This document shows positions 2,658-63,769 of a DNA stretch of 64,000 nucleotides, one piece after another. The translations under genes were made by a program, and so were the position numbers. The notes under the pieces were generated by a model. It saw only the letters and a program-made list of their open reading frames with translations, had not been told where the DNA came from and made no database searches. Numbering within the stretch: the stretch's first letter is position 1; each line of letters opens with the position of its first letter. Origin of the DNA: an uncultured virus (IMG/VR IMGVR_UViG_3300020469_000045) (Duplodnaviria > Heunggongvirae > Uroviricota > Caudoviricetes); the IMG/VR virus record IMGVR_UViG_3300020469_000045. One strand, given 5' to 3'.

Positions 2658-2834
2658 ATGAAAAACGAAGCACTTAATAAAATACATTCACACGAAAGAG
2701 AATGTTCAATTAGATACGAAAACATAGAGAAAAGACTTGATGAGGGCAATAAAAGGTTTGTTCGAATTGAACTTTTAATATATGGACTATATGCAGGAAT
2801 GGCAACAATAGAAGTTGCTTCAAGAATAATATGA
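2658..2834 (+). CDS. Small coiled-coil protein with C-terminal TM segment (58 aa)
   Basis: MKNEALNKIHSHERECSIRYENIEKRL...; conserved in second copy 60516..60692. Confidence 0.75.
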   Translation: MKNEALNKIHSHERECSIRYENIEKRLDEGNKRFVRIELLIYGLYAGMATIEVASRII

Positions 2835-3010
2835 GAATTTTTTTAACAGAGTTTATTTATAAAGAACAAGTTTATGATGGACCAGACATCATTGCAGAAA
2901 ACAGAGAGATAGCAGAAGAAACTGCTAAAAGAAAAGGAGTCACAGTTATTGGAGAGTTAGACTCTCTTCTAGCAATAGAAGATGACAATATAGAAGTCTC
3001 TATGCACTAA
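2831..3010 (+). CDS. Hypothetical protein (59 aa)
   Basis: MRIFLTEFIYKEQVYDGPDIIAE...; homolog at 60689..60883; ATGA overlap. Confidence 0.75.
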   Translation: MRIFLTEFIYKEQVYDGPDIIAENREIAEETAKRKGVTVIGELDSLLAIEDDNIEVSMH

Positions 3011-3159
3011 TGGACAATGACTTGCTTTTAGGCTTAGGTATTAATCTTTTGTTTTTATTAGGTCTAGTAAGTTTGAAACTGCACGCTGATAGAAGAGTTA
3101 AAAGAAATATGAAAGCTTATTTAAAATATTTAAAAGAAAAAAGGAAATACGATGTATGA
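3010..3159 (+). CDS. Small membrane protein (49 aa)
   Basis: MDNDLLLGLGINLLFLLGLVSLKL...NMKAYLKYLK; homolog at 60880..61035. Confidence 0.65.
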   Translation: MDNDLLLGLGINLLFLLGLVSLKLHADRRVKRNMKAYLKYLKEKRKYDV

Positions 3160-3577
3160 ATATAAATGCACAGTAGATAGAGTTGTTGATGGAGATACTA
3201 TTGATGTAACTCTTGATTTAGGATTTTCTGTCTTACATAAAACTAGAGTAAGGTTATATGGAATAGATACTCCAGAGTCTAGAACTCGTGATAAAGATGA
3301 AAAGGCTAGAGGAAAAATGTCTGCATTATTTTTAAAGATGGCTATAGACGATGCTACTACAGTAGTAATCAGAACAGAGTTAAGAGACTCAAGAGGAAAG
3401 TTTGGTAGAGTATTAGGCACAGTAGTTTGCGATGGAGAAAATGTTAATGAAGCTATGATTGAGGGGTTCTTAGCTGCTAAATACTTTGGTCAAAATAAAG
3501 CTGCAATAGAAGCAGTACATTTAGCTAACAGAACTAAACTTATAGAAATGGGTTTATTTGAGCCAGTTGATGGATGA
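3152..3577 (+). CDS. Thermonuclease (SNase-like) family nuclease
   Basis: VVDGDTID...RVRLYGIDTPES...GKFGRVLG motifs. Confidence 0.85.
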   Translation: MYEYKCTVDRVVDGDTIDVTLDLGFSVLHKTRVRLYGIDTPESRTRDKDEKARGKMSALFLKMAIDDATTVVIRTELRDSRGKFGRVLGTVVCDGENVNEAMIEGFLAAKYFGQNKAAIEAVHLANRTKLIEMGLFEPVDG

Positions 3578-3920
3578 TATTGTACGACTTATAACAGAGT
3601 TAGGTTTTCCAGTAGCTGCAGCATTAGGACTAGGAATTTTTGTATGGAAATTAATTAATAGAATTATTGATGGCATGGAATCTAAGATAGATGTAGTTGA
3701 TGACAAAGTTAATGAACAGTTAAAAGCTATGGAAGGCAGGCTAGATGCAAAGCTAGAAGCACAGCATGGCATATTAATATCATTAATAGATAGAGTTAGA
3801 AGTGTTGATAATGAAATTATTAGACAAGATACTTTATTAAAAACAATGTTAGGAGTTCCTAATTTAGTTCAAAGAGAAAAAATAGCAAAGGCAGAAAGAG
3901 ATGACCAAAGAAAAGATTAA
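3558..3920 (+). CDS. Single-TM protein, holin-like
   Basis: ITELGFPVAAALGLGIFVWKLI TM followed by coiled coil; likely start at the MDDIV Met (~3570). Confidence 0.55.
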   Translation: MSQLMDDIVRLITELGFPVAAALGLGIFVWKLINRIIDGMESKIDVVDDKVNEQLKAMEGRLDAKLEAQHGILISLIDRVRSVDNEIIRQDTLLKTMLGVPNLVQREKIAKAERDDQRKD

Positions 3921-4443
3921 AAGAAAAAGAGGTAGACCCTCTAATGCAGAATTAGCAGAAAGAAAAAAAGCAAAAGACAAAGATTTAGCTTTGATAATAA
4001 GTATGTTTGTTGGAATGTTTCTTATATTTTCTTTATGTATAAATATTGCTTTAGCTAGTGAAATGACATTTAAGTTTAAATCTCCTAGCTTTTCAGGTTT
4101 AAATACTTCGCAACATTATTTAACAATAGAAAATCAAGAGCATACAAGATATAAGACTTTGGAAGAAGAAGTAGAAGCTTTAGTAGAACAAGCTGAAAGA
4201 GATGAACAGAATACGACAACAGCAAGGTTTATAAGAAATTTTGAAACTAGAGTTTATGCTAAATTATCACAACAACTTGTAGAAAAGTTATTTGGTGATA
4301 TTGCACAAGATAATGGAACAATAGAATTAGAAGGGAATACTATTGACTATAAGGTTGATGAAACTAATATAACACTTACAGTTACAAATGAAGCTGATAA
4401 AAAAACAGTTATTACTTTTCCTCTCAATAGTTTTACTTTCTAG
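3901..4443 (+). CDS. csgF: Curli assembly protein CsgF-like, with N-terminal AT-hook-like extension
   Basis: After signal/TM segment, SEMTFKFKSPSFSG resembles the CsgF mature N-terminus (MTFQFRNPNFGG); adjacent to csgG. Confidence 0.8.
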   Translation: MTKEKIKRKRGRPSNAELAERKKAKDKDLALIISMFVGMFLIFSLCINIALASEMTFKFKSPSFSGLNTSQHYLTIENQEHTRYKTLEEEVEALVEQAERDEQNTTTARFIRNFETRVYAKLSQQLVEKLFGDIAQDNGTIELEGNTIDYKVDETNITLTVTNEADKKTVITFPLNSFTF

Positions 4444-5191
4444 CTGTACTTTATTTTATGACGATGCTTTGCCTAATCAAGAGATTTCAAAGTATCCTCA
4501 AAGAATTAGCGTTGTAAATAATAAAATTATTGAAACTCTTCCTGCTAAAACAAAACCTGTAATAGCTGTTTATCCTTCTTCTTTTACAGACCAAACAGGA
4601 CAAAGAAGAAGTAATAATAGTTTTGCAACTTTCAGCACAGCAGTTACACAAGCTCCTTATGTACTGCTAATAAAAACATTAAAAGCAGTTTCAGATGGTA
4701 ATTTTTTTGAAGTTGTTGAAAGAGTTGGTTTAGATAATCTCACAAAAGAAAGACAACTTATTAGAAGCACAAGAGAATCTTTTGATGACCCACAAAAATT
4801 AAAACCTTTAATGTTTGCTGGTTTAATAATGGAAGGCGCAATTATAGGCTATGAAACAAATACAAGAAGCGGTGGAAGAGGAGCTAGATTACTAGGCATT
4901 GGAGCTTCTAAAGAATATAAACAAGATACAGTAACATTATCTTTAAGAACAGTATCAGTATTAACAGGCAGAATATTAATGGAAGTTACAATATCAAAAA
5001 GTATTTTAAGTGTAGGTACAAATCAAGATGGTTTTAGATTTTTACAAAATAGAACCGAACTTATAGAAATAGAAAATGGCGATGTAGAAAATGAAAGCGT
5101 AACGATAGCTTTGCAAGCAGCTATAGAAGAAGCAATATTACAAACCATAGAAAAAGGAATTACAAAAAACTATTGGAGTTATAAAAAATGA
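4388..5191 (+). CDS. csgG: Curli secretion channel CsgG-like lipoprotein
   Basis: Lipobox LLSSC; IAVY..FTDQTGQR..FSTAVTQ..VVERVGLDNLTKERQLIRS..EGAIIGYETN motifs. Confidence 0.9.
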   Translation: MKLIKKQLLLFLSIVLLSSCTLFYDDALPNQEISKYPQRISVVNNKIIETLPAKTKPVIAVYPSSFTDQTGQRRSNNSFATFSTAVTQAPYVLLIKTLKAVSDGNFFEVVERVGLDNLTKERQLIRSTRESFDDPQKLKPLMFAGLIMEGAIIGYETNTRSGGRGARLLGIGASKEYKQDTVTLSLRTVSVLTGRILMEVTISKSILSVGTNQDGFRFLQNRTELIEIENGDVENESVTIALQAAIEEAILQTIEKGITKNYWSYKK

Positions 5192-23600: not shown

Positions 23601-23626
23601 AAAATATTTACCGGTAAATACTTTCT
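23601..23626. promoter_or_regulatory. Palindromic operator-like motif copy
   Basis: AAAATATTTACCGGTAAATACTTTCT. Confidence 0.6.
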
Positions 23627-24433: not shown

Positions 24434-24464
24434 GAGAAAATATTTACTAGTAAAACCTTTTCTC
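24434..24464. promoter_or_regulatory. Palindromic operator-like motif copy
   Basis: GAGAAAATATTTACTAGTAAAACCTTTTCTC. Confidence 0.6.
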
Positions 24465-26480: not shown

Positions 26481-27262
26481 TGAGCGTTCCTTTCAACAGA
26501 GTCAGCCGGTAGAGTTTCTGCGTACTTTACAAACCTTTGGTCAAGTTCAACTTTCATCTCTGGAAACTTCTCGCCTAAGATACCTATGTCTTTTGCATTA
26601 GCCTTGTAGTAGTTAGTCAACTGTTGCTTGGTTTGACATAAAGGGGAGTGCATAAACGTATCAACTCCTTCAAGAAAAACCTTCGCCCAATCTTCATCAT
26701 ACTCAACTTGATTTTCTGAGTCAGCAGGAGAAACTTCTTTACTAGGAATATTTTTCTCCTCATCACCACTAGCCTCAGTCTGCTCAGGCTCTTTTGCTTT
26801 AACGGGATTTTTCTTGCGTGTTTTTTCTGACACCTTATCTTTGTCCTCGTCAGGTAAGTCGTCACTTAATCCCATGTAAAGACCTATGCCTAATCCAAAC
26901 ATAGCCATGTTCTTAACAAGACATCTCATTCTGTTATCAGATACTTGCCTAGAGTCAGGTGTTATTATTGGTTGATTTTTATAGTCCATGATTGGTAATG
27001 ACATCATACGTACACATTCGCCAATCCTAATTGAAGTACAAACTTCCATGGTGTTATCGTCCATTTTAATTGACGGCATGAATTCATACTCAGCCTCAGG
27101 ATACTTCTCGCAAAGTAGAAACCATGCTCTACTCCAACTGAGATAATCCAAGTTCATCTTAGTCTCTTTGAATTCAGACACATCAACTTTCGATAATGTG
27201 TTCCATATTTCACGAAACTTCTCTGCTTTTATTTCTAATAAATTATCCATATTTTTCTCCAT
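26477..27262 (-). CDS. Sak/Rad52-like single-strand annealing protein (DUF1071-like)
   Basis: LDYLSWSRAW...LPIMDYKNQ...MRCLVKNMAMFGLGIGLY..DDLP. Confidence 0.85.
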   Translation of the reverse strand: MEKNMDNLLEIKAEKFREIWNTLSKVDVSEFKETKMNLDYLSWSRAWFLLCEKYPEAEYEFMPSIKMDDNTMEVCTSIRIGECVRMMSLPIMDYKNQPIITPDSRQVSDNRMRCLVKNMAMFGLGIGLYMGLSDDLPDEDKDKVSEKTRKKNPVKAKEPEQTEASGDEEKNIPSKEVSPADSENQVEYDEDWAKVFLEGVDTFMHSPLCQTKQQLTNYYKANAKDIGILGEKFPEMKVELDQRFVKYAETLPADSVERNAQ

Positions 27263-29813: not shown

Positions 29814-31577
29814 ATGATTAGCCAAGAATTAAATGAAAAATTAGACCGGCATACGTCAGGTCTGAGTCACGGACAAAGAAAAATCTCATGTCCGAATTGC
29901 CAAGATAAGAGAACAAAAAACAAACATGACACACCATTGAGCGTAAAGATTGACGAATACAAAGTCGTTTACCATTGTCATCATTGCAACATCAAGGGAG
30001 TTATAAACAGATACCAAAGTGCTATCAAAAAGGGAGGAGTTATGAAAGTAGTTAAGGCAGAAAAGCCACAGAAGAAAATAGTTTTAGCAGATAAGCAAGA
30101 AGAGAAAGCAAACAAGTGGTTGCTTGATAGAAAGATTAGTTTAGAAACAGCAGATAAATTTCGTGTAGCACGGGAAAAGAGAAAATATTTACCGGTAATA
30201 GGTTTCTCTTTCTACAATCCTGACGGAGAAGTTGAAGCTGTGAAGTTCAGGAAAGCCAATGGCGACAAGGATTTTTGGTGGGAGAACAATGCAAAAAGGT
30301 TTTGGGGAGAGCATGAATTCGATAGCAACAAAGAAACTATAGAGGATACAGTTGTTATTACCGAAGGGGAAATGGACGTATTAGCTATAGCAGAAGCTTT
30401 CAAAGACTACAACATAGCTGTTTACTCTGTGCCAAATGGAAGTCCAAACAAGATTACTGAGGGTAAGGTTGACCCAAGCGAGGACGGAAGGTTTGCTTAT
30501 GTGTGGGAAGATAGAGATAAGTTCCTTGATGTGAAGAAAGTTATCTTAGCTACTGACCAAGACTCAGCCGGAGATGTATTGACCCATGAGTTGAGCCGTA
30601 GGATAGGGAAAGCAAAGTGCTATCGCATGGATTACAAAGGATACAAGGACGCAAATGAATTGCTTATTGAGACAGACGAGGAGACAGTACGTAAGCAAGT
30701 GATTAATGCAGAGCCAATACCTTTGCATGGTCTAAACGATATAAGTTTTTACACAGATGAATTCCAAAGTTTGTATGATGAAGGCAAACCTCAGGGCATA
30801 AACACCGGATATGAGTCTGTTGATAAGGTATTTAATCTACAAACCGGATTGCTTTATGTAGTGACCGGCTATGCCGGAGAAGGTAAGAGTGCTTTCATAG
30901 ACCAATTAGTAGTCAATGCCGGTAAGAATTACAATTGGAAAACTTGTTATGCTAGTTTCGAGAAAAACCCTAGCTATCATTCGGTACAGTTAGCACAAAT
31001 AATAACCGGTAAACCTTTCTTTAAAACCAATGGGCATGAGCGTATGAGCCAAGAGGAGAAGGACGAAGCAGAGGCATGGATAGGAGAACACGTACTGTTC
31101 CAAGACTATTTAGACGGAGGGTTGCCAACGATTGAGAACGTGCTTGAGAAGTTTCATCATTCCATAATGAGAAACTCAGTAAAGATTTGTGTGATTGACC
31201 CCTTTAATTTTATCCATACTGATAGGACTAGCGGTCTAGAAACCCACATGATTTCAGATATGTTAAGCAAAGTTCAATTGTTTTGTAAGCAACATGACGT
31301 ATTGTGTATCTTCATAGCACACCCACAGAAACCACAAGACAGAAGTAAAAAGAATGTCTGTAACCTCATGGATATATCAGGCAGTATCTCGTGGAGTACG
31401 AAGGCAGATGTAGGCTTGACAGTATACAGAGGGTCGGATAATGTAGAAGTCCATTGTACCAAAGCGAGGTGGAATTGGAACGCACAGTTAGGCAAGGCAG
31501 ACTTATCATTCAATCCAACCAATGGAAGATACTCTGAAACTCAAGAAGAAACTGACGACTACGATTGGGATTTCTAA
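29814..31577 (+). CDS. Bifunctional primase-helicase (T7 gp4/Twinkle-like)
   Basis: Zn finger CPNC/CHHC, TOPRIM ITEGEMD..ATDQDSAG..KDANE, Walker A GYAGEGKS, IAHPQK, ISGS. Confidence 0.92.
   Translation: MISQELNEKLDRHTSGLSHGQRKISCPNCQDKRTKNKHDTPLSVKIDEYKVVYHCHHCNIKGVINRYQSAIKKGGVMKVVKAEKPQKKIVLADKQEEKANKWLLDRKISLETADKFRVAREKRKYLPVIGFSFYNPDGEVEAVKFRKANGDKDFWWENNAKRFWGEHEFDSNKETIEDTVVITEGEMDVLAIAEAFKDYNIAVYSVPNGSPNKITEGKVDPSEDGRFAYVWEDRDKFLDVKKVILATDQDSAGDVLTHELSRRIGKAKCYRMDYKGYKDANELLIETDEETVRKQVINAEPIPLHGLNDISFYTDEFQSLYDEGKPQGINTGYESVDKVFNLQTGLLYVVTGYAGEGKSAFIDQLVVNAGKNYNWKTCYASFEKNPSYHSVQLAQIITGKPFFKTNGHERMSQEEKDEAEAWIGEHVLFQDYLDGGLPTIENVLEKFHHSIMRNSVKICVIDPFNFIHTDRTSGLETHMISDMLSKVQLFCKQHDVLCIFIAHPQKPQDRSKKNVCNLMDISGSISWSTKADVGLTVYRGSDNVEVHCTKARWNWNAQLGKADLSFNPTNGRYSETQEETDDYDWDF
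30178..30209. promoter_or_regulatory. Palindromic operator-like motif copy (intragenic)
   Basis: AGAGAAAATATTTACCGGTAATAGGTTTCTCT. Confidence 0.5.
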
Positions 31578-32079
31578 AGAGGAAGTCTACGTCAATGATG
31601 TAGGCAATCCTTACTTACACAAGAGACACAAAGTCCAAGTCCAAAAGATAGACAACTCTCGCATAGGTCAGGCGATTGTCTTTGACCAACACATGATAGA
31701 CAAGCTTTATATCCAAGATTATCTGAACGAAAGACAACACATGGTGTGTGATAAATACCTTAATCTGTTGACCAAGTCAGGCTGTTTTGCGTCAGCTCCA
31801 CCCTCCATGGAGAAAATATTTACTAGTAATTACTTTCTGCAAAGGGCAATGCCACGCTCCATTGTACTTTCTCCCCCTGTGAAACAACTTCAGGAGTTAT
31901 GTGGAAATGAAAAAGAGAAAGCGTTCTATAAAATAATGACCGGTAATCCTAAAAGAATTACCGAGTCAGAATATAATGTGATTGTTGATTGTGCCGAAGC
32001 TTTACTTCAACTGTGGTATGTCAACGAGACTAGTCCGGTTTCGTTATTTCAGAGAGCCTTTCTAAAGGAGACTTCATAG
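31522..32079 (+). CDS. Hypothetical protein
   Basis: 185-aa ORF after the helicase. Confidence 0.65.
   Translation: MEDTLKLKKKLTTTIGISKEEVYVNDVGNPYLHKRHKVQVQKIDNSRIGQAIVFDQHMIDKLYIQDYLNERQHMVCDKYLNLLTKSGCFASAPPSMEKIFTSNYFLQRAMPRSIVLSPPVKQLQELCGNEKEKAFYKIMTGNPKRITESEYNVIVDCAEALLQLWYVNETSPVSLFQRAFLKETS
31811..31838. promoter_or_regulatory. Palindromic operator-like motif copy (intragenic)
   Basis: AGAAAATATTTACTAGTAATTACTTTCT. Confidence 0.55.
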
Positions 32080-32910: not shown

Positions 32911-32936
32911 AAAATATTTCCTAGTAAATACTTTCT
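32911..32936. promoter_or_regulatory. Palindromic operator-like motif copy
   Basis: AAAATATTTCCTAGTAAATACTTTCT. Confidence 0.6.
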
Positions 32937-33860: not shown

Positions 33861-34162
33861 GCTACACCTCCTGACTTTCTGTTGTCTTTGATAGCAACAA
33901 CCAAGTCTGATAAATGGTCGGCTCCTTGTTGAAAGTCGTCAATGCTTTCCACGGACAACCTAAGAATAGAGTCAAGATAGTCTCGAATAGACTCAACCTC
34001 ACTTAGACTTATAGCGTCTAGTCTTTGGACATTGTCTACTCGATAAGACAATTGTTTACTTAACCTCTGAATGATATCAACTGCTGATACCAAGTCGTTG
34101 ACTATATCTTTCAGAACTATACGTTCATCTATATATAACATCTTTTCTTTAACTTCTGTCAT
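33857..34162 (-). CDS. Hypothetical early protein (helical)
   Basis: SD AGGAGGT; coupled. Confidence 0.7.
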   Translation of the reverse strand: MTEVKEKMLYIDERIVLKDIVNDLVSAVDIIQRLSKQLSYRVDNVQRLDAISLSEVESIRDYLDSILRLSVESIDDFQQGADHLSDLVVAIKDNRKSGGVA

Positions 34163-34887
34163 GCTACACCTCCTTGCATTTCAAATTGTTTTTTAGTCGG
34201 ATACGTTAACTGATACTTCTTAGCACAATGCTTTCCATATCCGTACGCTTTCGAGATATCGTCAGACAATCTCCTCTTGCAGAAAGAACATTGACCGGTC
34301 AACTGTCCGAACTCTCGGACAACTTTCTCAGGGTCAAGGGCAATTGCATTTAGAGTATTGACTGCTTCGTCTTTGATTGCTTGTTTCTCAAAGTCCAACT
34401 GAACATTAGAGTATCTAAAGTGAGGAAAGAACAATCCGTTCAAGTCCACCCTACCAAGATACTCTTTGCCATATTGAAAGTCAGGGTCACAACTGACGAG
34501 CAACTGCAACTGACCTTCAAACTTTGACTTGTCAGTAGCAACGTACATCTTCAGAAACCAATCAGCATTTCCGGAACTACCTCCGGCAATTGGAACTGAC
34601 ATAGCAACTCTGATAGATGAAAAGTTAGGAACTCTGTTTAGGAACTCCAACACTTTGCTTATCTCATTGACTTGAATAGTCTCTTTAGGTTTTGGAGGAG
34701 CAAGAACTTTGTCTCGTATCTTCGCAACCATAGTCCATTGTTTCTCGGACAAGTTACCCTTCATGTCTAATTGATGTCTGACACTTCTTAAAAAAGAAAC
34801 GTCCCATTTTGTGTGGTCGTCATGCTTACAGACCTCTGTAAACATTCCGTCTTTGGCTAACCACAACTGTAGTTTTAAATCTTCCAT
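34159..34887 (-). CDS. Early protein with C-terminal Zn-binding motif (DUF6011-like)
   Basis: GQCSFCKRRLSDDISKAYGYGKHCAKK; N-terminal LSEKQW motif; SD AGGAGGT. Confidence 0.7.
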   Translation of the reverse strand: MEDLKLQLWLAKDGMFTEVCKHDDHTKWDVSFLRSVRHQLDMKGNLSEKQWTMVAKIRDKVLAPPKPKETIQVNEISKVLEFLNRVPNFSSIRVAMSVPIAGGSSGNADWFLKMYVATDKSKFEGQLQLLVSCDPDFQYGKEYLGRVDLNGLFFPHFRYSNVQLDFEKQAIKDEAVNTLNAIALDPEKVVREFGQLTGQCSFCKRRLSDDISKAYGYGKHCAKKYQLTYPTKKQFEMQGGVA

Positions 34888-34914
34888 AGTACCTCCTATA
34901 AAGATTAAGTTAAT

Positions 34915-34972
34915 AAACTGATTTCATACTTTTGTAATCATTCAGACCAAGCACACACTTGATTATCAGTTT
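34915..34972 (-). ncRNA. Type III hammerhead ribozyme (HH-C)
   Basis: Minus: AAACUGA-UA|AUCAAG-UGUGUG-CUUGGU-CUGAAUGA-UUAC-AAAA-GUAU-GAAA-UCAGUUU; core has one extra A; predicted cut between 34964 and 34963. Confidence 0.8.
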
Positions 34973-35008
34973 TTTTAGAAGTGAAAATTTGCGTCCCGTG
35001 ACCAACAT

Positions 35009-35042
35009 TAGAGAAAATATTTACTAGTAAATACTTTCTCTA
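35009..35042. promoter_or_regulatory. Palindromic operator-like motif copy (best copy)
   Basis: TAGAGAAAATATTTACTAGTAAATACTTTCTCTA, further flanked by CGTGACC/GGTCACG. Confidence 0.65.
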
Positions 35043-35100
35043 CAAGGGTCACGAAACACAAACTGTTACACATGGTGTAAAACTTTCGGGGAAAAGGTGT

Positions 35101-36543
35101 TCACTTGATGAACACCCTCTCGCCAAAAGGCATATCCTTTTTTGGATTAGAGAAGCCGTAGCTACCTTCAACAGTAAAGACGTGAATGACCGGTAGATTG
35201 TCCGGCATAGGCTCGTCCAACTCTTCCATTTCAAAGTCGTCCTCTCCGTCCGAGAAGTGAATAAGCAAGTCGACCTCGTCTCTCTCTTCAAGCTTAGAAA
35301 GGAAAGCATTGAAACCGGCAACACCATAAGTACCACCGGAGCCATGACAAGGGAACGTATCTTTGTCCGGCATACAATCTCCTTGAGTCGTGTCGAACAA
35401 GTCGAAGTATTCTCCTTGCTCATTTCTAAAATGGTTAGAGGCATACCTTCCGACCCACAGTTTCTCAACTGCAAACTCCTCAAGCAACGTCATGGTTTCT
35501 GTAATGAATTCATCACGACACCATTCGGTACTGCCTGATACGTCATTGAGAATGACAACGTTTTTTATTTCGTTCTCACGTTTCTTTGACGGCAAGATTA
35601 GTCCGGAGTGTTGATACTTTTTATTGAGTCGAGCGTAAGACCTCTTGTTGGATTTACGAGAGGTTAGTATCTCTCTCAAGTAATCATTCCATGCAACCTG
35701 AGGTCTTTTGATTTCTCCGGCTCTGCCTCCAAGGTAGTCAACGTTGCCTGAGTCTCCTTTCATTCCTTCAAGTTTCTCTGCCATAAGAACTTGTTGGTCA
35801 AGTCTCGTCTGCTCCTCTCGTACTTCTTGAGGAGTGAGGTCTTGTCCTTCTTCGCCCTTCATGTCAATGACACCACCAACCGGCTGAGGTAAGTCGTCAA
35901 GATTGACTCCACCTTGTCCGGACATTTGTCCTTCGGCTTCGTCCTCGTCCTGACTTTCGCCCTGACCCTGACCCTGACCTTCGCCCTCGCCTGAATCAGA
36001 CTCGTCTTGCTCAGACTCGCCTTGCTCGTCCGACTCTTGACCTAGTCCTTTCTCAACCTGAGACTTTGCCTTCTCCAACTCCTCGTCATTCGCATACAAG
36101 AAGTCATAGATTGCATTAGCCGACCATGACTGATACTTCCTATCAAGTAGACCACCTTCCGGTAAATCTAAATTCAAGTCATACACAATGTATGAATTGA
36201 TTGCATAGTCAGTAGCAATGTTCCAAAGCTTAGGGTGTCTTTCAAGACCACCTTCGCACCTTCGTATATGGTGTCCCCAAACAACGTGAAGAGCCTCGTG
36301 AATTAAGACTCCTTTTATTTGGTCGAACTTCATAGACAAAGTGAAATCCGGAGAGTAAATAATACTCTTGCCGTCCGTAGCCATTGTCCCAATGGACTCG
36401 TCCTCTATGAGGTCAAGTCCTAAGAGAATAGAAGTCATGCCGGTAGCTGAGTCCATTAACTGTGACTTAGCTTTTGTTATGACTTGCTCTGCCGTTTGAC
36501 CCATATACTCAGGTCGTCTTTGTGCAACGTTGTACTCACTCAT
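35101..36543 (-). CDS. DUF2201-like metallopeptidase plus VWA domain protein
   Basis: TMATDG..HEALHVVWGH..WNIATDYAIN; acidic Q/E/G linker; MIDAS DVSGS; FSDG. Confidence 0.85.
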   Translation of the reverse strand: MSEYNVAQRRPEYMGQTAEQVITKAKSQLMDSATGMTSILLGLDLIEDESIGTMATDGKSIIYSPDFTLSMKFDQIKGVLIHEALHVVWGHHIRRCEGGLERHPKLWNIATDYAINSYIVYDLNLDLPEGGLLDRKYQSWSANAIYDFLYANDEELEKAKSQVEKGLGQESDEQGESEQDESDSGEGEGQGQGQGESQDEDEAEGQMSGQGGVNLDDLPQPVGGVIDMKGEEGQDLTPQEVREEQTRLDQQVLMAEKLEGMKGDSGNVDYLGGRAGEIKRPQVAWNDYLREILTSRKSNKRSYARLNKKYQHSGLILPSKKRENEIKNVVILNDVSGSTEWCRDEFITETMTLLEEFAVEKLWVGRYASNHFRNEQGEYFDLFDTTQGDCMPDKDTFPCHGSGGTYGVAGFNAFLSKLEERDEVDLLIHFSDGEDDFEMEELDEPMPDNLPVIHVFTVEGSYGFSNPKKDMPFGERVFIK

Positions 36544-37492
36544 TGTCGCCTCCCATTAGTCCACCGAAGATAGAGTCGTTGAGACTTTTCTTCGCTGTAG
36601 TTATTTCTTCTTTCATAGACTCTCGGTTTTCAACCGCAAGGTCGTCCTTGCCTTTGAGAGACTCTATGCCGTTTGATACTTTGGTTAAGGTCGCAGTCAC
36701 TTGAGATATCACACCGGACAATTTCTTACTGTTAAGAAGCTTGTCATTGATACTCTGAGCATTTTCAACTTTAGCCTTGAGGTTATCAAAGACTGCACGT
36801 TTAAAGAACGACCCTTTGTTGCCTTCCTTTTCCATTGCAACTAAGACATTGTCTAGAGCCTCAGTCAGTCCGGCTATTTGCTCTTTGGCAATCATGTTGT
36901 GAGTATCTTTGAAATTACTCGCAACTTGACTCTCAATCATTGAACGTTGCTCGGCTGACAATTGAACTCTAGCGTCATTAGAAAATGACACAGACTCGAA
37001 GGCTCCAAACTGTATTTCAAATTTGCACTTCGCTCTGAAAGTTTCTACATCATCATAGTTATTGATGTCGAAAGCTTCGCCCAATTTCTTCTTAGCATTT
37101 TCAATATGCCAATCATAATTTGAACAAAACGAGTCAACTGCTTTTTCAAACATTGCCTTGTGTTGCTTGTAGAGTTTCTCTAACTGAGTCACTTTGTCGT
37201 TAGGAATAATTCTCCATTGTGAAGAGTTAGTATCTCCGTCCGACCAAGGATAAGACAACGGCTTAAACACAGTCGTCTCAAACGCTACAAAGTATTTCCT
37301 AAAATAGGAATTGATTTTCTCCGGAAACAAATAGTCCGAAGCTGTGTGCATAGAAGGGTCAGAGTCAAACAACTTTGCTAACTCCTTCTTGCTCCTAGGA
37401 TTGACCTTTTGGTCAGAGGGTAAACCTCTGCGAAAGACCACCTTAACAAACGAGTCTGAAAAGACAGACTCTAACGTTTTATTTTTATTCAT
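36536..37492 (-). CDS. Hypothetical helical protein (DUF3150-like) in the AAA/VWA cluster
   Basis: Lies between AAA ATPase and VWA genes; PWSD...RIIP...KLGEAFDINNY; SD GGAGGT. Confidence 0.6.
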   Translation of the reverse strand: MNKNKTLESVFSDSFVKVVFRRGLPSDQKVNPRSKKELAKLFDSDPSMHTASDYLFPEKINSYFRKYFVAFETTVFKPLSYPWSDGDTNSSQWRIIPNDKVTQLEKLYKQHKAMFEKAVDSFCSNYDWHIENAKKKLGEAFDINNYDDVETFRAKCKFEIQFGAFESVSFSNDARVQLSAEQRSMIESQVASNFKDTHNMIAKEQIAGLTEALDNVLVAMEKEGNKGSFFKRAVFDNLKAKVENAQSINDKLLNSKKLSGVISQVTATLTKVSNGIESLKGKDDLAVENRESMKEEITTAKKSLNDSIFGGLMGGDNE

Positions 37493-37519
37493 TTATACCT
37501 CCATGAAATAAAAAATTTA

Positions 37520-37579
37520 ATAAACTGATTTCATACTCTCGTAATCGTCAGACCGAGTCACACTCGATTATCAGTTTAT
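37520..37579 (-). ncRNA. Type III hammerhead ribozyme (HH-B)
   Basis: Minus: AUAAACUGA-UA|AUCGAG-UGUGA-CUCGGU-CUGACGA-UUAC-GAGA-GUAU-GAAA-UCAGUUUAU; predicted cut between 37569 and 37568. Confidence 0.88.
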
Positions 37580-37585
37580 GGCAGC

Positions 37586-37620
37586 GAGAGAAAATATCTT
37601 ACTAGTAAAATATTTCTCTC
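37586..37620. promoter_or_regulatory. Palindromic operator-like motif copy
   Basis: GAGAGAAAATATCTTACTAGTAAAATATTTCTCTC. Confidence 0.6.
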
Positions 37621-37640
37621 ACTTCCAAAAAAACCAAGAC

Positions 37641-38747
37641 CTACAGAATTAGGTTTTGATTATCCACACGGAATTGTCCGAACGCCTTGCTCTTCTCCAA
37701 CTCCGGTCTTGCTCCAACACAAGAGCGAACGAAGTAGATACCGAACTCAGCCGTTGGGAACTTCTCAACATACTTGAGAGCATTTTCCCAATAGGAAACC
37801 AAGTCCTTGTCCTTGCACTCAGACAAGACCTTAACGAGTCCACAGCAAGTCGCATATTGAAGACCAACTCCTTCCGGAACTTCCACGTCCTCGCCACTCA
37901 CAATGTCGTCAAGGGACGGAACATTTTGCATGAGGTTAACGAACGTTAAGAACTCAGCCGTACTCTCTGAGCCGATACAACCACTCATAAGCTTTCCGAA
38001 CATTGAGTTAGTCAAATCGTTCTCAAATCTTTGAACTATCGGACTAGCCATTGACCAAGTCCTTGAGGAACTCTGACTCTCTTTCAACTTAGGGTCAAAG
38101 TGATTTAAGAACTGAGGCTGATAGTTTATGAACGAAGTTATCAGAGGGTGTACATCATTCTTCGTTGCCCACGCTAACCAAGAATTAGTATCGCCTTCCA
38201 CGTGCATTTCTATCACTCTGTCTAACAAGTGAGAGAGGATAGAATTTGCTCCGGCTCTATCGGTCTGTCTATTACCGGCTAAAACAATTTTAAATCCGTC
38301 AGAGATTTTTGTTTCGCCAATAATCCTTTCACGCACACCACGTCCGGCAATCTTTTGCATTTCCGGAGTAGCTTGTGCGAACTCGTCAAGAAACAAAACT
38401 CCACTTCCTGAGATAGGCAAGTTTTGTAATTGAGCGAGTCTTTGTACCGGCTCTCCTTCGACCATGTCGACCACCGGAACACCTCTCGTGTCCTCCGGCT
38501 CCAAGTCTGCAATCCTCAAGTCAATGAGAGAGAACTCGTCCTCGCTCGGATTTATTTTTCCGTAGACAAGCTTTCGACCATTAGCGAGAGTCTTAGCATA
38601 TTGTTCGACTAGAGAGGACTTACCGATACCTACTCCACCGAGTAAGCAAGGAACTAAGTCCGTTCCGTCTGCACTAACCATTGGAGTAATTTCCAACATA
38701 CCTTCGATAGCTTCCGAAGGAGTATAAGTTTTATCTTTGGCACTCAT
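37641..38747 (-). CDS. AAA+ ATPase (MoxR/CobS-like)
   Basis: Walker A GGVGIGKS, Walker B LFLDE, IVLAGNR..DRAG, SSRTW. Confidence 0.9.
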   Translation of the reverse strand: MSAKDKTYTPSEAIEGMLEITPMVSADGTDLVPCLLGGVGIGKSSLVEQYAKTLANGRKLVYGKINPSEDEFSLIDLRIADLEPEDTRGVPVVDMVEGEPVQRLAQLQNLPISGSGVLFLDEFAQATPEMQKIAGRGVRERIIGETKISDGFKIVLAGNRQTDRAGANSILSHLLDRVIEMHVEGDTNSWLAWATKNDVHPLITSFINYQPQFLNHFDPKLKESQSSSRTWSMASPIVQRFENDLTNSMFGKLMSGCIGSESTAEFLTFVNLMQNVPSLDDIVSGEDVEVPEGVGLQYATCCGLVKVLSECKDKDLVSYWENALKYVEKFPTAEFGIYFVRSCVGARPELEKSKAFGQFRVDNQNLIL

Positions 38748-38872
38748 TAGTACACCTCCTTAGATACGAGAATTTCATTGTCGAACTTCTCAAATTTAAA
38801 TTTCGCAATAGGTTTCTTTCTACTACGTCTGTTCAGTTTAGAGACATGAACGTCTGTCATTTGTATTTTCAT
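38747..38872 (-). CDS. Small basic protein (41 aa), first gene of the leftward operon
   Basis: MKIQMTDVHVSKLNRRSRKKPIAKFKFEKFDNEILVSKEVY*; SD AGGAGG; TAATG coupling to the ATPase. Confidence 0.75.
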   Translation of the reverse strand: MKIQMTDVHVSKLNRRSRKKPIAKFKFEKFDNEILVSKEVY

Positions 38873-38900
38873 ATTTCCTCCTAAGAAATATATTAAGTTA

Positions 38901-38949
38901 ACTGTTTCTGCTTTCGCTTCCTCAGACTAGGCACACACCTAGTGACAGT
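38901..38949 (-). ncRNA. Type III hammerhead ribozyme (HH-A)
   Basis: Minus: ACUG-UC|ACUAGG-UGUGUG-CCUAGU-CUGAGGA-AGC-GAAA-GCA-GAAA-CAGU; GUC triplet; predicted cut between 38944 and 38943. Confidence 0.85.
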
Positions 38950-39374
38950 AAGAAATTCGAAAGGGATAACAAAACGCTATCCCTCTCAAATAATTTGGTT
39001 AGGAATTTCTGTCGCAAAGAAAATTATTTAGGGTCTGTTTATTTAACATCAAGACTCGGTCTCGTTGGAGCAATTGCTGTCACTTTGCTTTCGAGACCTA
39101 CTGCTTTCGTATCTGTTTCAATACTCCATATAGCATTTAGGTAAGGGTGTTTGAGGTACGGCTAAAATTGTTCCACCAATTTATCATCACGACCTGACCT
39201 AGTTTTTGGGTAATAAAGAATACTAGGACGACCTCCACGGAGTCTGTACGAATAGACTACCGATAAAAATTAAAACTACTTTTCTATAGACACCTCCTCA
39301 AAAATTATGACGAGTTTGAGCCTCAAGTCCTTGCTTGATTTTTGGGTACAGAAAAACGTCATTGCCATAAGAGG

Positions 39375-39383
39375 ATTATAGCA
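39375..39383 (-). promoter_or_regulatory. Extended -10 promoter for the leftward operon
   Basis: TGCTATAAT on the minus strand; predicted +1 ~39368. Confidence 0.55.
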
Positions 39384-39438
39384 AAATGTACCCTTAAATA
39401 TACCTCTATTTAGCTATCAGTCTGTGGTCATTACGTGG

Positions 39439-39464
39439 GAAAAGGTTTACCGGTAAAATGTTTT
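39439..39464. promoter_or_regulatory. Palindromic operator-like motif copy at the terS start
   Basis: GAAAAGGTTTACCGGTAAAATGTTTT. Confidence 0.5.
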
Positions 39465-39970
39465 GTATGAGTGATGAGAAAAAACCCAACCTAAAAATAG
39501 TCGGCACGAAACCGAAACCAGAAACAGACCTTACTCCTAAACAGAGAGCCTTCATTGAAGAGATAGTAAAAGGTAAAACAACTTACAAAGAAGCATACGC
39601 AAAAGTCTATGACGTGAAGTTAAACAAGAACGGCTCCATTCCTAAATGGGTAAATGTAGAAGCTTCCAAGATGTTAGCTAACCCTAAGATTTCCCTAAGC
39701 ATACAACGTGCTATCAGTAAGCGAGAGGAGGGAGTAGTAGCTTCCTCTATCCGTACGAGGAGTTATGTTTTAGAAAGGCTCCATGCAGAGAGTCGAGGAG
39801 ACAACGAGGATTCTACTCCGGCAAGTAGGGTTAGGTCTTTGGAACTACTAGGAAAAACTTCCGGTATGTTTACCGATACAGTCGAAGTAAAAGAACAGAG
39901 AGACTCCTCAACAATTGAGGCAGAGATACTTAGACTGCTAGAGAACGAAGCAGTAGACGACCACCACTAA
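39458..39970 (+). CDS. terS: Terminase small subunit
   Basis: LTPKQRAFIEEI..YKEAY..ASKMLANPKI...RVRSLELLGKTSGMF; upstream of terL; likely start 39467. Confidence 0.85.
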   Translation: MFCMSDEKKPNLKIVGTKPKPETDLTPKQRAFIEEIVKGKTTYKEAYAKVYDVKLNKNGSIPKWVNVEASKMLANPKISLSIQRAISKREEGVVASSIRTRSYVLERLHAESRGDNEDSTPASRVRSLELLGKTSGMFTDTVEVKEQRDSSTIEAEILRLLENEAVDDHH

Positions 39971-40288
39971 TAAGAGATAGCACTAGGCTATCATCATCTG
40001 AATTCTCAGATCATATTGAATTATGCTTTGCCCAGTAATTGGGAAAGATAGGTACCACTTGAGCAAAATCAAAGTGAGAAATCTAGGCGACCCACACCCC
40101 CATTGAGTAATTGGCAACTTGCTTGTCACTCTATACATAGTGATTCACTCATTCGATACCCAACTTTGGTATACCCCCCCCTATTATATAGCAAAGTGAT
40201 AGCTTTTTTTGTTTGATATATATAATCGAATGTGGATAAAGGGTAGGAGTCCCATACCCCCCATAGTATATTTTTTTTTAATAAGTTA

Positions 40289-60515: not shown

Positions 60516-60692
60516 ATGAAAGATGAAGCTTTAAATAAAATACATTCACACGAAAGAGAATGTACTATTAGATATGAGAATTTAGAAAAAAGATTAGAGG
60601 AAGGCTCTAAAAGATTTGTACGTATTGAATTGCTTATATATGGTTTATATGCAGGTATGGCAGCAATAGAAATAACTTCGAGGTTTATATGA
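60516..60692 (+). CDS. Small coiled-coil/TM protein (homolog of 2658..2834)
   Basis: MKDEALNKIHSHERECTIRYE. Confidence 0.75.
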   Translation: MKDEALNKIHSHERECTIRYENLEKRLEEGSKRFVRIELLIYGLYAGMAAIEITSRFI

Positions 60693-60883
60693 AATTATTT
60701 TTAACAGAATTTACACATGATAAAAAAAGATACTCAGGACCTACTATAGTTGCTGAGAGTTTACAAATGGCAGAAGACTCTGCTGCAGACCTAGGTGTAG
60801 AAGTAGTAGGGGAACTAGACAGTTTAGTTTCAGTAGTTTTAGAGTCACTATGGGAAGCTGACGAAGACAAAGTCTTGCATTGA
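60689..60883 (+). CDS. Hypothetical protein (homolog of 2831..3010)
   Basis: MKLFLTEF...GPTIVAE. Confidence 0.75.
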   Translation: MKLFLTEFTHDKKRYSGPTIVAESLQMAEDSAADLGVEVVGELDSLVSVVLESLWEADEDKVLH

Positions 60884-61035
60884 ATAGCGAGTTAGTTTTT
60901 GTAATAGCTTTAAATGTAATATTCTTAATAGGATTATTAGGATTAAAATTTTATTTGAAAAGAAAAGCTGAAAAAAATATGAAAGCTTATCTTAGATATT
61001 TAAGACACAAGAGAAAATATAATGTACGAATATAA
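60880..61035 (+). CDS. Small membrane protein (homolog of 3010..3159), TTG start
   Basis: ...LNVIFLIGLLGLK...NMKAYLRYLR. Confidence 0.6.
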   Translation: MNSELVFVIALNVIFLIGLLGLKFYLKRKAEKNMKAYLRYLRHKRKYNVRI

Positions 61036-61444
61036 ATGCACAATAGATAGAGTAGTAGATGGAGATACTGTAGACGCTACTCTTGATTTAGGATTTTCTG
61101 TTTTATACAAAAGTAGAGTAAGGCTTTTTGGCATAGATACTCCTGAGTCTAGAACAAGAAATAAAGATGAAAAAGCTAGAGGTAAACTAGCTGCTAAATT
61201 TTTAAGTGATGCTATAGATAAAGCAGATACTGTAGTTATACGTACAGAACTAAGAGACTCTAGAGGAAAGTTTGGCAGAGTTTTAGGCACAATTGTTTGT
61301 GATGATATAGATATAAATAATTCTATGATAGAAAATTTTATGGCAGCAAAATATTTTGGTCAAAACAAAACTGCAATAGAAGCTGTACATCAATCTAATA
61401 GAACTAAACTTATTGAGTTAGGTTTGTTTGAGCCTGTTGAATAA
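61022..61444 (+). CDS. Thermonuclease (SNase-like), second copy
   Basis: VVDGDTVD...RLFGIDTPES. Confidence 0.85.
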   Translation: MYEYKCTIDRVVDGDTVDATLDLGFSVLYKSRVRLFGIDTPESRTRNKDEKARGKLAAKFLSDAIDKADTVVIRTELRDSRGKFGRVLGTIVCDDIDINNSMIENFMAAKYFGQNKTAIEAVHQSNRTKLIELGLFEPVE

Positions 61445-61794
61445 TGGACGATATTGTAAAGTTAATAACTGAGTTAGGATTTCCTGTTGCTGCAGCATTA
61501 GGACTAGGTGTATTTGTTTGGAAACTAATTAATAGAATTATAGACGGCATGGAATCTAAGATTGATGTTGTTGATGATAAAGTAAATGAACAATTAAAAG
61601 CTATGGAAGGTAGGCTAGATGCTAAATTAGAAGCACAACATGGAATATTGATTGCTTTGATAGACAGAGTTAGAAGTGTAGATAATGAAATTATTAGACA
61701 AGATACTTTACTTAAGACTATGTTAGGTGTACCTAATCTAGTACAGAACGATAAAATAGCAAAGGCAGATAGAGATGACCAAAGAAAAGATTAA
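61444..61794 (+). CDS. Single-TM holin-like protein, second copy
   Basis: Nearly identical in protein sequence to 3558..3920. Confidence 0.55.
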   Translation: MDDIVKLITELGFPVAAALGLGVFVWKLINRIIDGMESKIDVVDDKVNEQLKAMEGRLDAKLEAQHGILIALIDRVRSVDNEIIRQDTLLKTMLGVPNLVQNDKIAKADRDDQRKD

Positions 61795-62317
61795 AAGAAA
61801 AAGAGGCAGACCTTCTAATGCAGAACTAGTTGCTAGAAAGAAAGCAAGAGATAAAGACGTAGCTTTAATTATTTGTATGTATGTTGGTTTATTTATAGTC
61901 ATAGCATTTTGTGTAAATCTAGCATTAGCTGATGAAATGAATTTTAAATTTAAGTCACCAAGCTTTTCAGGTATCAATACATCTCAACATTATTTAACAA
62001 TAGAAAATCAAGAACATACTAGATATAAAACATTGCAAGAAGAAGTAGAAGCTTTAGTAGAACAGGCAGAAAGAGATGAACAGAATACTACAACTGCAAG
62101 ATTTATAAGAAACTTTGAAACAAGAGTTTATGCAAAATTATCTCAACAATTAGTTGATAAGTTGTTTGGAGAAACTGCACAAGATAACGGGACAATAGAA
62201 CTTGAGGGGAATACTATTGACTATAAGGTTGATGAAACCAATATAATTTTGACAGTTACTAATGAAGCTAACAAACAAACAGTTATTACTTTTCCTCTTA
62301 ATAGTTTTACTTTCTAG
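61775..62317 (+). CDS. csgF: CsgF-like protein, second copy
   Basis: KRKRGRPS...ADEMNFKFKSPSFSG. Confidence 0.8.
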   Translation: MTKEKIKRKRGRPSNAELVARKKARDKDVALIICMYVGLFIVIAFCVNLALADEMNFKFKSPSFSGINTSQHYLTIENQEHTRYKTLQEEVEALVEQAERDEQNTTTARFIRNFETRVYAKLSQQLVDKLFGETAQDNGTIELEGNTIDYKVDETNIILTVTNEANKQTVITFPLNSFTF

Positions 62318-63065
62318 CTGTACTGTCTTTTATGATGATGCTTTACAAAATCAAAAGATTTCAAAGTATGCTGAAAGAGTTGGAGTTATTAATAAAGAAA
62401 TAGAGACTATTTTACCGGCAGATAAAAAACCTATAGTAGCTATATACCCAACTTCTTTTACAGACCAAACAGGACAAAGAAGAAGTAATAGTAATTTTGC
62501 AACGTTTAGCACAGCAGTCACACAAGCACCATATGTGCTTTTGATAAAGACTTTAAAAGCTGTATCTAACGGAGAGTTTTTTGAAGTTGTAGAAAGAATA
62601 GGTTTAGATAATCTAACTAAAGAAAGACAACTAATAAGAAATACCAGAGAAACATTTGATGACCCACAAAAATTAAAACCATTAGTTTTTGCAGGTCTTA
62701 TAATGGAAGGAGCTATAGTCGGCTATGAAACCAATACAAGAAGTGGAGGTCGTGGAGCTAGACTTTTAGGTATAGGGTTATCAAAACAATATAGACAAGA
62801 TACTGTCACACTGTCTTTGAGAACTGTATCTGTTTTAACCGGTAGAGTTTTAATAGAAGTTACAGTATCAAAAACTATATTAAGTGTTGGAACTAATCAA
62901 GACGCTTTTAGATTTATAGAAAATAAAACCGAATTGATTGAAATAGAAAATGGTGATGTAGAAAATGAAAGCGTAACGATAGCTGTACAAGCAGCAATTG
63001 AAGAAGCTATTTTGTCTACAATCAAAAAAGGAATTGAAAAACAATATTGGAGCTATAAAGAATGA
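62262..63065 (+). CDS. csgG: CsgG-like lipoprotein, second copy
   Basis: Same motifs as 4388..5191. Confidence 0.9.
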   Translation: MKLTNKQLLLFLLIVLLSSCTVFYDDALQNQKISKYAERVGVINKEIETILPADKKPIVAIYPTSFTDQTGQRRSNSNFATFSTAVTQAPYVLLIKTLKAVSNGEFFEVVERIGLDNLTKERQLIRNTRETFDDPQKLKPLVFAGLIMEGAIVGYETNTRSGGRGARLLGIGLSKQYRQDTVTLSLRTVSVLTGRVLIEVTVSKTILSVGTNQDAFRFIENKTELIEIENGDVENESVTIAVQAAIEEAILSTIKKGIEKQYWSYKE

Positions 63066-63769
63066 AAAAGTATTTACCAGTAATTATTTTTTTAAGTATA
63101 AATATTTTTGCTACAGACAATGAAATATCTATAGACCAAGCAGGAGCTACGGCAAATATAGATATTGAGCAGCTTGGGTCTGGAAACTTAATCGGTGGAG
63201 CTACTGCTGTATCAGGTACTATGACACCATTAGATTTAGATGGTGCAACAATGACACTTGATGTAAACCAACTAGGTAATTCAAATATATTTAAAGGCGA
63301 TATATATGCTGATAGTTATACAGGCTTTTTTGAATTTACCGGAGACTCTAATACATTTGCCATACAGACAGACCCTAATAATACTTATGGTGCAGACAGT
63401 TCTAATATAAATGTACAAGTGTCTGGGTCATCAAATGCTTTTACTTTTAATCAGGCGACTAATGCACAAGCTTCTACATTAGATTTAGATTGGACAATAA
63501 ATGGCTCTAATAATTCAATTACATCTGCAATTGACCAAGACTTAGCTACAAACTATATGAACATAGATGGGTCTGATAATACTGTGACATTTGATGGTGA
63601 CGGGTATCAAGGAGCATATTTTCATTTGACTCATACAGGAGGGTCAAGAACAATAAATGTTACACAACAAAGCACACTTGATAATGATTGGCTTAAGATT
63701 ACTTCTAATGGCTCTAATGGTACTTTCTGTGTCAATCAAAACGACCAAGGCACTAGCACAAGCTGTTGA
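63062..63769 (+). CDS. Curlin-like secreted protein, second copy
   Basis: Homolog of 5188..5895. Confidence 0.65.
   Translation: MKKYLPVIIFLSINIFATDNEISIDQAGATANIDIEQLGSGNLIGGATAVSGTMTPLDLDGATMTLDVNQLGNSNIFKGDIYADSYTGFFEFTGDSNTFAIQTDPNNTYGADSSNINVQVSGSSNAFTFNQATNAQASTLDLDWTINGSNNSITSAIDQDLATNYMNIDGSDNTVTFDGDGYQGAYFHLTHTGGSRTINVTQQSTLDNDWLKITSNGSNGTFCVNQNDQGTSTSC

Follow-up and report, generated by a model that had tools for sequence, protein, structure and literature searches.

What do three short, similar RNA elements do on the coding strand of a phage operon when each stands just ahead of a ribosome-binding site? The question is raised by a 64,000-nucleotide stretch of DNA from an uncultured virus of the Caudoviricetes (IMG/VR record IMGVR_UViG_3300020469_000045), referred to here as the window. 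A preliminary description, made from the sequence alone, had read the elements as type III hammerhead ribozymes that cut one polycistronic transcript into separate messages. We find that the three elements, called HH1, HH2 and HH3, do belong to a type III subfamily widespread among uncultured marine phages; their place in the hammerhead class is highly probable, and self-cutting with a role in the phage is probable. Direct reading of the minus strand gives the following sequences, in which the slash marks the predicted cut.

38949..38901, minus strand: HH1, ACUGU C / ACUAGG-UGUGUG-CCUAGU CUGAGGA A-GC-GAAA-GC-A GAA ACAGU.
37579..37520, minus strand: HH2, AUAAACUGAU A / AUCGAG-UGUGA-CUCGGU CUGACGA U-UAC-GAGA-GUA-U GAA AUCAGUUUAU.
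34972..34915, minus strand: HH3, AAACUGAU A / AUCAAG-UGUGUG-CUUGGU CUGAAUGA U-UAC-AAAA-GUA-U GAA AUCAGUUU.

The order of parts is the same throughout: the 5′ strand of stem III, U-H, the stem I hairpin, CUGA..GA, the stem II hairpin, GAA and the 3′ strand of stem III, which starts with A15.1. The topology is type III in each case, as stems I and II are closed by loops and stem III is open. The invariant bases of the hammerhead (C3, U4, G5, A6, G8, A9, G12-A14, A15.1-U16.1 and a non-G H17) are unbroken in HH1, HH2 and HH3. The core C3 U4 G5 A6 N7 G8 A9, which had been ascribed to all three elements as CUGANGA, is present in HH1 (CUGAGGA) and HH2 (CUGACGA) and not in HH3, the core of which is the 8-nucleotide (nt) sequence CUGAAUGA, in which one base is added after A6 or at N7. 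Stem III of HH2 comprises 10 bp, and stem II of HH1 just two Watson-Crick pairs closed by a GAAA loop. The minimum-energy fold of each isolated element, obtained with RNAfold, is a three-way junction, and HH1 and HH2 give the same junction inside contexts of about 140 nt.

Cleavage is predicted after the triplet GUC in HH1, between 38944 and 38943, and after AUA in both HH2, between 37569 and 37568, and HH3, between 34964 and 34963. The nucleotides that would carry the 5′-OH (38943, 37568 and 34963) agree with those named in the preliminary description. The distance from HH1 to HH2 is 1,375 nt and from HH2 to HH3 2,605 nt, and all three lie on the gene strand.

A hammerhead descriptor scan finds three sites in the window; 100 dinucleotide shuffles gave a mean of 0.13 and a maximum of 2, and none reached three. 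A covariance model built from five copies, R1, was run with filters off and scored HH1 at 66.4, HH2 at 68.1 and HH3 at 76.7 bits, the next best match in the window being at about 11 bits. An R1 match at 39450-39515 on the plus strand (11.2 bits) was rejected because its core is missing (UUUGUAUGA). The plain CTGANGA...GAAA pattern has 13 matches in the window against 5.6 expected and does not detect HH3, because the core of HH3 has 8 nt. Two plain-pattern matches, 34232-34265 and 26824-26853, lie inside coding sequence, have no stems and were rejected.

Close relatives were found via the AAA protein encoded next to the elements (93-100% identity). All nine retain every hammerhead site covered by their contig, at syntenic positions. 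HH1 is kept in L001-L007 and L009, with the core CUGAAUGA in L005-L007. The HH2 orthologue in L005-L008, the AAA protein of which is 93% identical, is fully canonical, featuring CUGAUGA, G10.1-C11.1 and a 4-bp stem II, and its top Rfam match is Hammerhead_3 (RF00008; 15.4 bits, E 0.5). HH2 of the window differs from HH2 of L005 in five places, all at positions that hammerheads tolerate: one in stem I (U.G to C-G), one at N7, one on each side of 10.1-11.1 and one in loop II. HH3 is identical in L002, L005, L007 and L008, and L004 and L009 have a longer stem III. No hammerhead was found with the distant AAA homologues L010 and L011 (28% identity). Among cultured phages, the large terminases closest to that of the window belong to DSL-LC04, 023Pt_psg01 and Pelagibacter phage HTVC027P, all at about 58% identity. 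Searches with R1 found no subfamily copy in HTVC027P or DSL-LC04 (0 of 2), nor in the nearest record, G001, which is a 58%-complete fragment. Likewise, blastn of the operon and of two of the hammerheads against GenBank phages gave no meaningful match.

The wider family emerged from a scan of IMG/VR viral contigs in which loop I (GUGUG), the core and GAAA were fixed and every stem position was left free. The pattern occurs in 97 stretches, and R1 finds 52 matches within 80 loci from these stretches. The covariation alignment contains 32 matches, 28 of them distinct. In these 28 sequences, 95.4% of cells are paired, compared with 68.1% in shuffled alignments and 29-42% when partners are slid. 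Compensatory changes on both sides occur at 13 of the 15 pairs (108 cells), and 0 of 500 shuffles reach these values. G.U pairs, such as the UG found in seven sequences at columns 8-23, are compatible with the gene-sense RNA strand alone. Direct reading, shuffles and covariation bear out the earlier claim of three type III hammerheads on the minus strand, each before a ribosome-binding site.

Some conserved features were not imposed by the search pattern. U16.1-A15.1 is found in all 28 sequences, and stem III is present throughout. Among 36 distinct sequences, H17 is A in 25, C in 10, U in one and never G. The 10.1-11.1 position in the same 36 is U.U in 24, G-C in nine and A.A in three. An 8-nt core is carried by six of the 36, with differing stems, and reads CUGAAUGA every time; for instance, it recurs with other stems in L042, L062 and L053. 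A second scan, for the HH1 type with a 10-nt stem II, returned 83 stretches, and a hammerhead was present in 10 of the 80 loci examined (three distinct sequences). The HH1-type copy of L160 sits in an unrelated contig and has a different stem I. Whole-record copy numbers in five phage records are 3, 3, 0, 1 and 4, multiple copies being on one strand. Some phages of the group may also mix hammerhead types. L033:736-808 and L082:746-817 show weak Rfam matches to RAGATH-1-hammerhead (31.4 and 26.2 bits), and L033 also has a weak Hammerhead_1 match (23.4 bits); these lie downstream of the type III hammerhead, at a distance of about 350 nt.

The subfamily can be connected to a curated family. Rfam Hammerhead_3 (RF00008, clan CL00010, gathering score 48.5 bits) has the same topology and core, and in four of eight loci tested the canonical subfamily members align along its whole length, with scores of 33.5-38.9 bits and E values from 7e-6 to 2.5e-4, which ties the subfamily to Hammerhead_3.

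Each element of the window either separates genes that run the same way or stands before the first gene. HH1 belongs to the 5′ leader of the gene that opens the leftward operon; HH2 lies between the AAA_5 gene and the DUF3150-like gene, and HH3 between the DUF2201_N gene and the DUF6011 gene. The start sites, each with a Shine-Dalgarno (SD) sequence, and the gene units are listed below.

38882..38877 (SD AGGAGG) and 38872..38870 (ATG), minus strand: start of the 41-aa open reading frame (ORF), 28 nt past stem III of HH1.
37502..37498 (SD GGAGG) and 37492..37490 (ATG), minus strand: start of the 318-aa DUF3150-like gene, 27 nt past stem III of HH2.
34896..34892 (SD GGAGG) and 34887..34885 (ATG), minus strand: start of the 242-aa DUF6011 gene, 27 nt past stem III of HH3.
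37641..38872, minus strand: unit 1, the 41-aa ORF (38747..38872) and a 368-aa AAA_5 ATPase (37641..38747).
35101..37492, minus strand: unit 2, the 318-aa DUF3150-like gene (36536..37492) and a 480-aa DUF2201_N putative metallopeptidase (35101..36543).
34159..34887, minus strand: unit 3, which starts with a gene for a 242-aa protein that carries a DUF6011 domain at its C terminus (E 1.2e-8).

The spacing of 27-28 nt between each hammerhead and an SD-bearing start, already given in the preliminary description, agrees with these coordinates. The AAA_5 assignment has an E of 1.3e-4 and 22.4 bits against a cut-off of 22, and the DUF3150-like match, at 22.2 bits, is under its cut-off of 24.9. When HH1 is folded in context, the SD AGGAGG of the 41-aa ORF is enclosed by a small AU-rich hairpin at 38870-38892 on the minus strand, which may be incidental. 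A gene-free region of 585 bp, 38873-39457, separates the leftward operon from the rightward terminase genes. A promoter scan of 34000-40000 gave seven sites against 8.2 expected, which is chance level, and none could be assigned. Direct repeats at 2658-4840 and 60516-62714 (71-86% identity) are spaced by about 57.87 kb, close to the 58,982-bp length of G002, a complete record from a related virus. It seems that the window extends beyond one genome length into a diverged second copy, which could reflect a strain-mixed wrap-around assembly or a concatemer.

The same placement is found across the subfamily. Of 50 distinct contexts, 44 have an SD and a start codon that opens an ORF of 35 codons or more, beginning 16-39 nt past stem III (median 23.5); the stop of the upstream ORF is usually 27-107 nt ahead of the ribozyme. 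The 70 nt upstream of the ribozyme have a fold z-score below -2 in 38 of 48 contexts, compared with 14 of 48 coding controls. Perfect hairpins of 6 bp or longer stop 0-4 nt short of the ribozyme in 26 of 51 contexts, compared with 16 of 153 control windows. These upstream hairpins are divergent in sequence, and most are GC-rich and have no U-tract. The genes downstream vary, and in other phages the subfamily precedes many unrelated genes. This diversity, along with the distant AAA homologues that have no ribozyme, does not support the specific link to an AAA+/VWA module drawn in the preliminary description. All three elements of the window are preceded by a hairpin.

38955..38991, minus strand: hairpin before HH1, 17 pairs, ending 5 nt ahead of HH1, with a U-rich 3′ flank.
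37580..37626, minus strand: hairpin abutting HH2, AU-rich, about 20 pairs, -19.6 kcal/mol, z -3.3.
34986..35064, minus strand: hairpin before HH3, long and interrupted, 37 predicted pairs, ending about 13 nt ahead of HH3.

The hairpin before HH1 has a terminator-like pattern; the z-score of the 111-nt stretch is -2.9, and the hairpin is also seen in the context fold. At the centre of the hairpin abutting HH2 is a palindromic element (…TTTACTAGTAA…) of which the window has further copies. Across eight sequences, the 20 pairs of this hairpin show no compensatory change, and one-sided changes occur at two pairs. The hairpin before HH3 has a folding energy of -49.2 kcal/mol over 133 nt (z -7.7), and its inner part is the same palindromic element as in the hairpin abutting HH2. 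In L004 and L009, four of its 37 pairs are altered on both sides and still paired. The modelled length of this hairpin would suffice for an RNase III-type substrate.

The palindromic element is AT-rich and about 22-34 bp long (…AAATATTTAC(T/C)(A/G)GTAAATATTT…). About eight copies are present in the window, with none expected by chance:

23602-23623, 24438-24459, 30176-30211, 31808-31841, 32912-32933, 35009-35042, 37592-37615 and 63068-63089: copies of the palindromic element.

Several copies are found at gene or operon boundaries, including a convergent junction at 23.6 kb, and some are away from the hammerheads. The element could act in the phage as a terminator, as a hairpin for RNA processing or as a site bound by a dimeric regulator.

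How might the three ribozymes act? The RNA of the leftward operon, on the replication and recombination side of the genome, would carry all three, each of which would fold and most likely cut itself after H17. Cutting at HH1 would remove the leader from the first gene. Cutting at HH2 and HH3 would yield units containing the 41-aa ORF and AAA_5, the DUF3150-like and DUF2201_N genes, and DUF6011 onward. Each downstream RNA would begin with a 5′-OH and the stem I hairpin, about 70-80 nt ahead of the start codon. Each upstream RNA would terminate in a stable hairpin and a tail of 6-11 nt bearing a 2′,3′-cyclic phosphate. By what is generally known of bacterial mRNA decay, both ends would be protected from exonucleases and from 5′-end-dependent decay. 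The A.A or U.U at 10.1-11.1 and the extra base of HH3 probably make the window copies slower than canonical hammerheads, and cleavage may be slow or partial, because the cores are non-consensus.

In T7, early mRNA is processed by RNase III, a host protein that cuts double-stranded RNA hairpins and leaves 5′-phosphate and 3′-OH ends. The two systems would be alike in that intercistronic cuts are made in an early polycistronic phage RNA and leave hairpin-bearing ends. In contrast to T7, the cut would here be made autocatalytically by the RNA, leaving 5′-OH and 2′,3′-cyclic phosphate ends. The analogy with T7 and RNase III, proposed in the preliminary description, is apt as an account of how the elements could work, and the idea is not new. 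RiboJ is an engineered insulator derived from a plant satellite RNA hammerhead, with a helper hairpin downstream of the ribozyme. There too a hammerhead between upstream sequence and a ribosome-binding site gives the downstream mRNA a defined 5′ end. Unlike RiboJ, the window elements are natural and their hairpins are upstream.

The arrangement, the core variants and the processing idea have been known since 2011. Perreault et al. (2011, PLoS Comput Biol, PMC3088659) describe prophages and phages in which multiple hammerheads flank genes, and report that three tandem arrangements in phage-like polycistronic RNAs of about 2 kb cleave in vitro. They propose that processing turns long phage transcripts into mRNAs the length of a gene or an operon. 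The division of the leftward transcript into three hairpin-capped units with 5′-OH ends, as set out in the preliminary description, is plausible and matches that published hypothesis for clustered phage hammerheads. Natural hammerheads with U10.1-U11.1, a 2-bp stem II or an insertion after A6 are also recorded in that paper. HH1-HH3 are therefore not a new kind, since the variants, the clustering and the processing idea were all in place. A later review (Weinberg, Weinberg and Hammann 2019, PMC6765202) repeats the processing and stability hypothesis and states that the roles of bacterial ribozymes are largely elusive.

The elements of the window resemble the clusters described by Perreault et al. 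in that several hammerheads are on one strand, one or two genes apart, with inconstant flanking genes and the same core variants. Unlike those clusters as described there, the window copies are all type III and belong to one marine-virome subfamily. In this subfamily, loop I is conserved as UGUG(U/C)(G/A), loop II is of the NAAA type and U.U is the majority state rather than a rarity. In further contrast to that account, a hairpin abuts the 5′ side, the SD and start follow 16-39 nt on, and cleavage is predicted from sequence alone. A second parallel is HHphage of haloviruses HF1 and HF2, a variant hammerhead just upstream of a start codon that heads an early polycistronic transcript. According to PMC3088659, the halovirus hammerhead lies 13 nt before the start codon and a mapped 5′ end falls within 3 nt of the cleavage site. 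HHphage differs in its core insertion near C3, in its archaeal host and in being a single copy, compared with three here. The additions made by the present locus are modest: a marine-virome type III subfamily with U.U as the norm, the recurrent CUGAAUGA core and the hairpin-hammerhead-SD layout. No description of this layout was found in open-access literature or bioRxiv; the supplements of Perreault et al., which were outside the search, may hold subfamily members.

Taking the observed motif, topology, strand, covariation, conservation and placement next to a ribosome-binding site together, we give a probability of about 0.7 to the full reading, in which the elements are genuine ribozymes that cut themselves with biological relevance, and in which the cleavage, its extent and its effects on mRNA stability and stoichiometry are inferred. 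Several findings weigh against it. The G10.1-C11.1 pair is absent from all three elements and is replaced by A.A in HH1 and by U.U in HH2 and HH3. The phrase "hammerhead catalytic consensus", used in the preliminary description, is an overstatement, given the variants carried by all three elements. G10.1-C11.1 is highly conserved and not absolute, U.U being a published active exception; according to the same source, other mispairs at 10.1-11.1 are worse, and an A6 insertion such as that of HH3 has low activity in vitro (PMC3088659). The combination of A.A and a 2-bp stem II in HH1 is represented by only three distinct sequences in 10 of 80 loci. Fold-energy z-scores of the isolated elements are weak (-0.56, -1.88 and -1.40). 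The covariation alignment was fitted to the model, and the conservation of loop I and core is partly by construction, because the search pattern fixed both.

Rfam also provides points against cleavage-competent copies. No hammerhead family is found in the whole window at gathering score, and none at E<=10 in 34700-39200 or in loci with window-type copies. Canonical relatives, too, score under the gathering score of 48.5 bits. The matches that Rfam does return at E<=10, in 34700-39200 and likewise in the loci with window-type copies, are of miRNA and snoRNA type and were rejected as spurious, due to the long hairpins. Lastly, contigs from two RNA-labelled libraries bridge the HH1 cut, X2 across 38851-39029 with 0 differences and X4, which is from a relative, across 38715-38982 with 15 differences. 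These contigs could represent uncleaved RNA or contaminating DNA, and the four RNA runs (X1-X4) consist of short, low-depth assembled contigs that cannot show RNA ends. These runs gave no position at which many molecules start or stop, and their gaps in coverage carry no weight.

Much of this would also suit hammerhead-derived copies that are catalytically weak or dead and are kept as structured intercistronic spacers. Such copies might insulate folding, bind proteins or provide ribosome standby sites, cutting not being their main role. The non-consensus features found in all three elements, the silence of Rfam on the window copies and the library contigs spanning the HH1 site would all be accommodated, as would the slow A6 insertion and an A.A that, from the account of Perreault et al. 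(PMC3088659), should be worse than U.U. However, the invariant core bases are intact in all three elements, and this speaks against a pure spacer because a structural spacer would not need them. U16.1-A15.1 and a non-G H17 hold across the subfamily without being imposed by the pattern. U.U is the majority state (24 of 36) and a variant documented as active in the same paper. The 8-nt core, moreover, is constant as CUGAAUGA in six distinct sequences with different stems and therefore looks selected rather than decayed. We consider the spacer explanation unlikely, though it is the best of the alternatives.

The flanking hairpins could themselves define the transcript units, as terminators or as RNase III or RNase E sites, and the hammerheads would then be incidental passengers. 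Strong hairpins do precede all three sites, the one before HH1 is terminator-like, and those of HH2 and HH3 hold a palindrome that, in about eight copies, is also found at gene boundaries lacking hammerheads. Yet hairpin and hammerhead co-occur in unrelated phages despite differing hairpin sequences, which argues for a joint module. Most hairpins of the subfamily are devoid of a U-tract, and the hammerhead core is conserved independently of the hairpins. We regard this explanation as improbable.

Slightly more doubtful still is that cleavage is followed by ligation, whereby the 2,605-nt RNA between HH2 and HH3 would be circularised into an exonuclease-resistant, translatable circular mRNA for the DUF3150-like and DUF2201_N proteins. 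Pairing of the 3′ tail with the HH2 body, which lies at the 5′ end of the same RNA, could be followed by joining through the reverse ribozyme reaction or an RtcB-type ligase of the host. HH2 and HH3 have identical stem III strands (AAACUGAU/AUCAGUUU), so an 8-bp hybrid is possible, and the established end chemistry of hammerheads suits ligation. Perreault et al. (PMC3088659) raised circular or spliced products as a possibility; they searched for them and report none detected. In addition, stem III (ACUGU/ACAGU-like) is alike in most of the subfamily, so its sharing by HH2 and HH3 is the default and not special, and an HH1-HH2 hybrid is impossible. No joints were seen in the four RNA runs, which is weak evidence given their low depth and their being contigs. 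Chance resemblance to the motif, which the weak isolated fold z-scores and the silence of Rfam might have suggested, is effectively refuted by the absence of three sites in any of 100 shuffles, by the strong covariation and by syntenic conservation in nine of nine close relatives.

With self-cutting ribozymes as the preferred reading, the locus leaves the picture drawn in 2011 unchanged and offers a clean, conserved example of it, with three copies in one operon. Relatives whose AAA protein is 93% identical provide natural "allelic" pairs: the U.U of HH2 in the window corresponds to G-C in these relatives, and the 7-nt core of HH1 to one of 8 nt. Such pairs pose the question of whether slow variants are tuned or decaying. 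A more speculative possibility is that the hairpin-hammerhead-SD layout is a natural insulator cassette, in which slow variants (U.U, A.A or an extra A) would keep cleavage partial and in this way fix the proportions of the protein units. The layout of hairpin, ribozyme, spacer and SD with start codon provides a testable model, in which self-cleavage could give one message its 3′ end and the following message its 5′ end.

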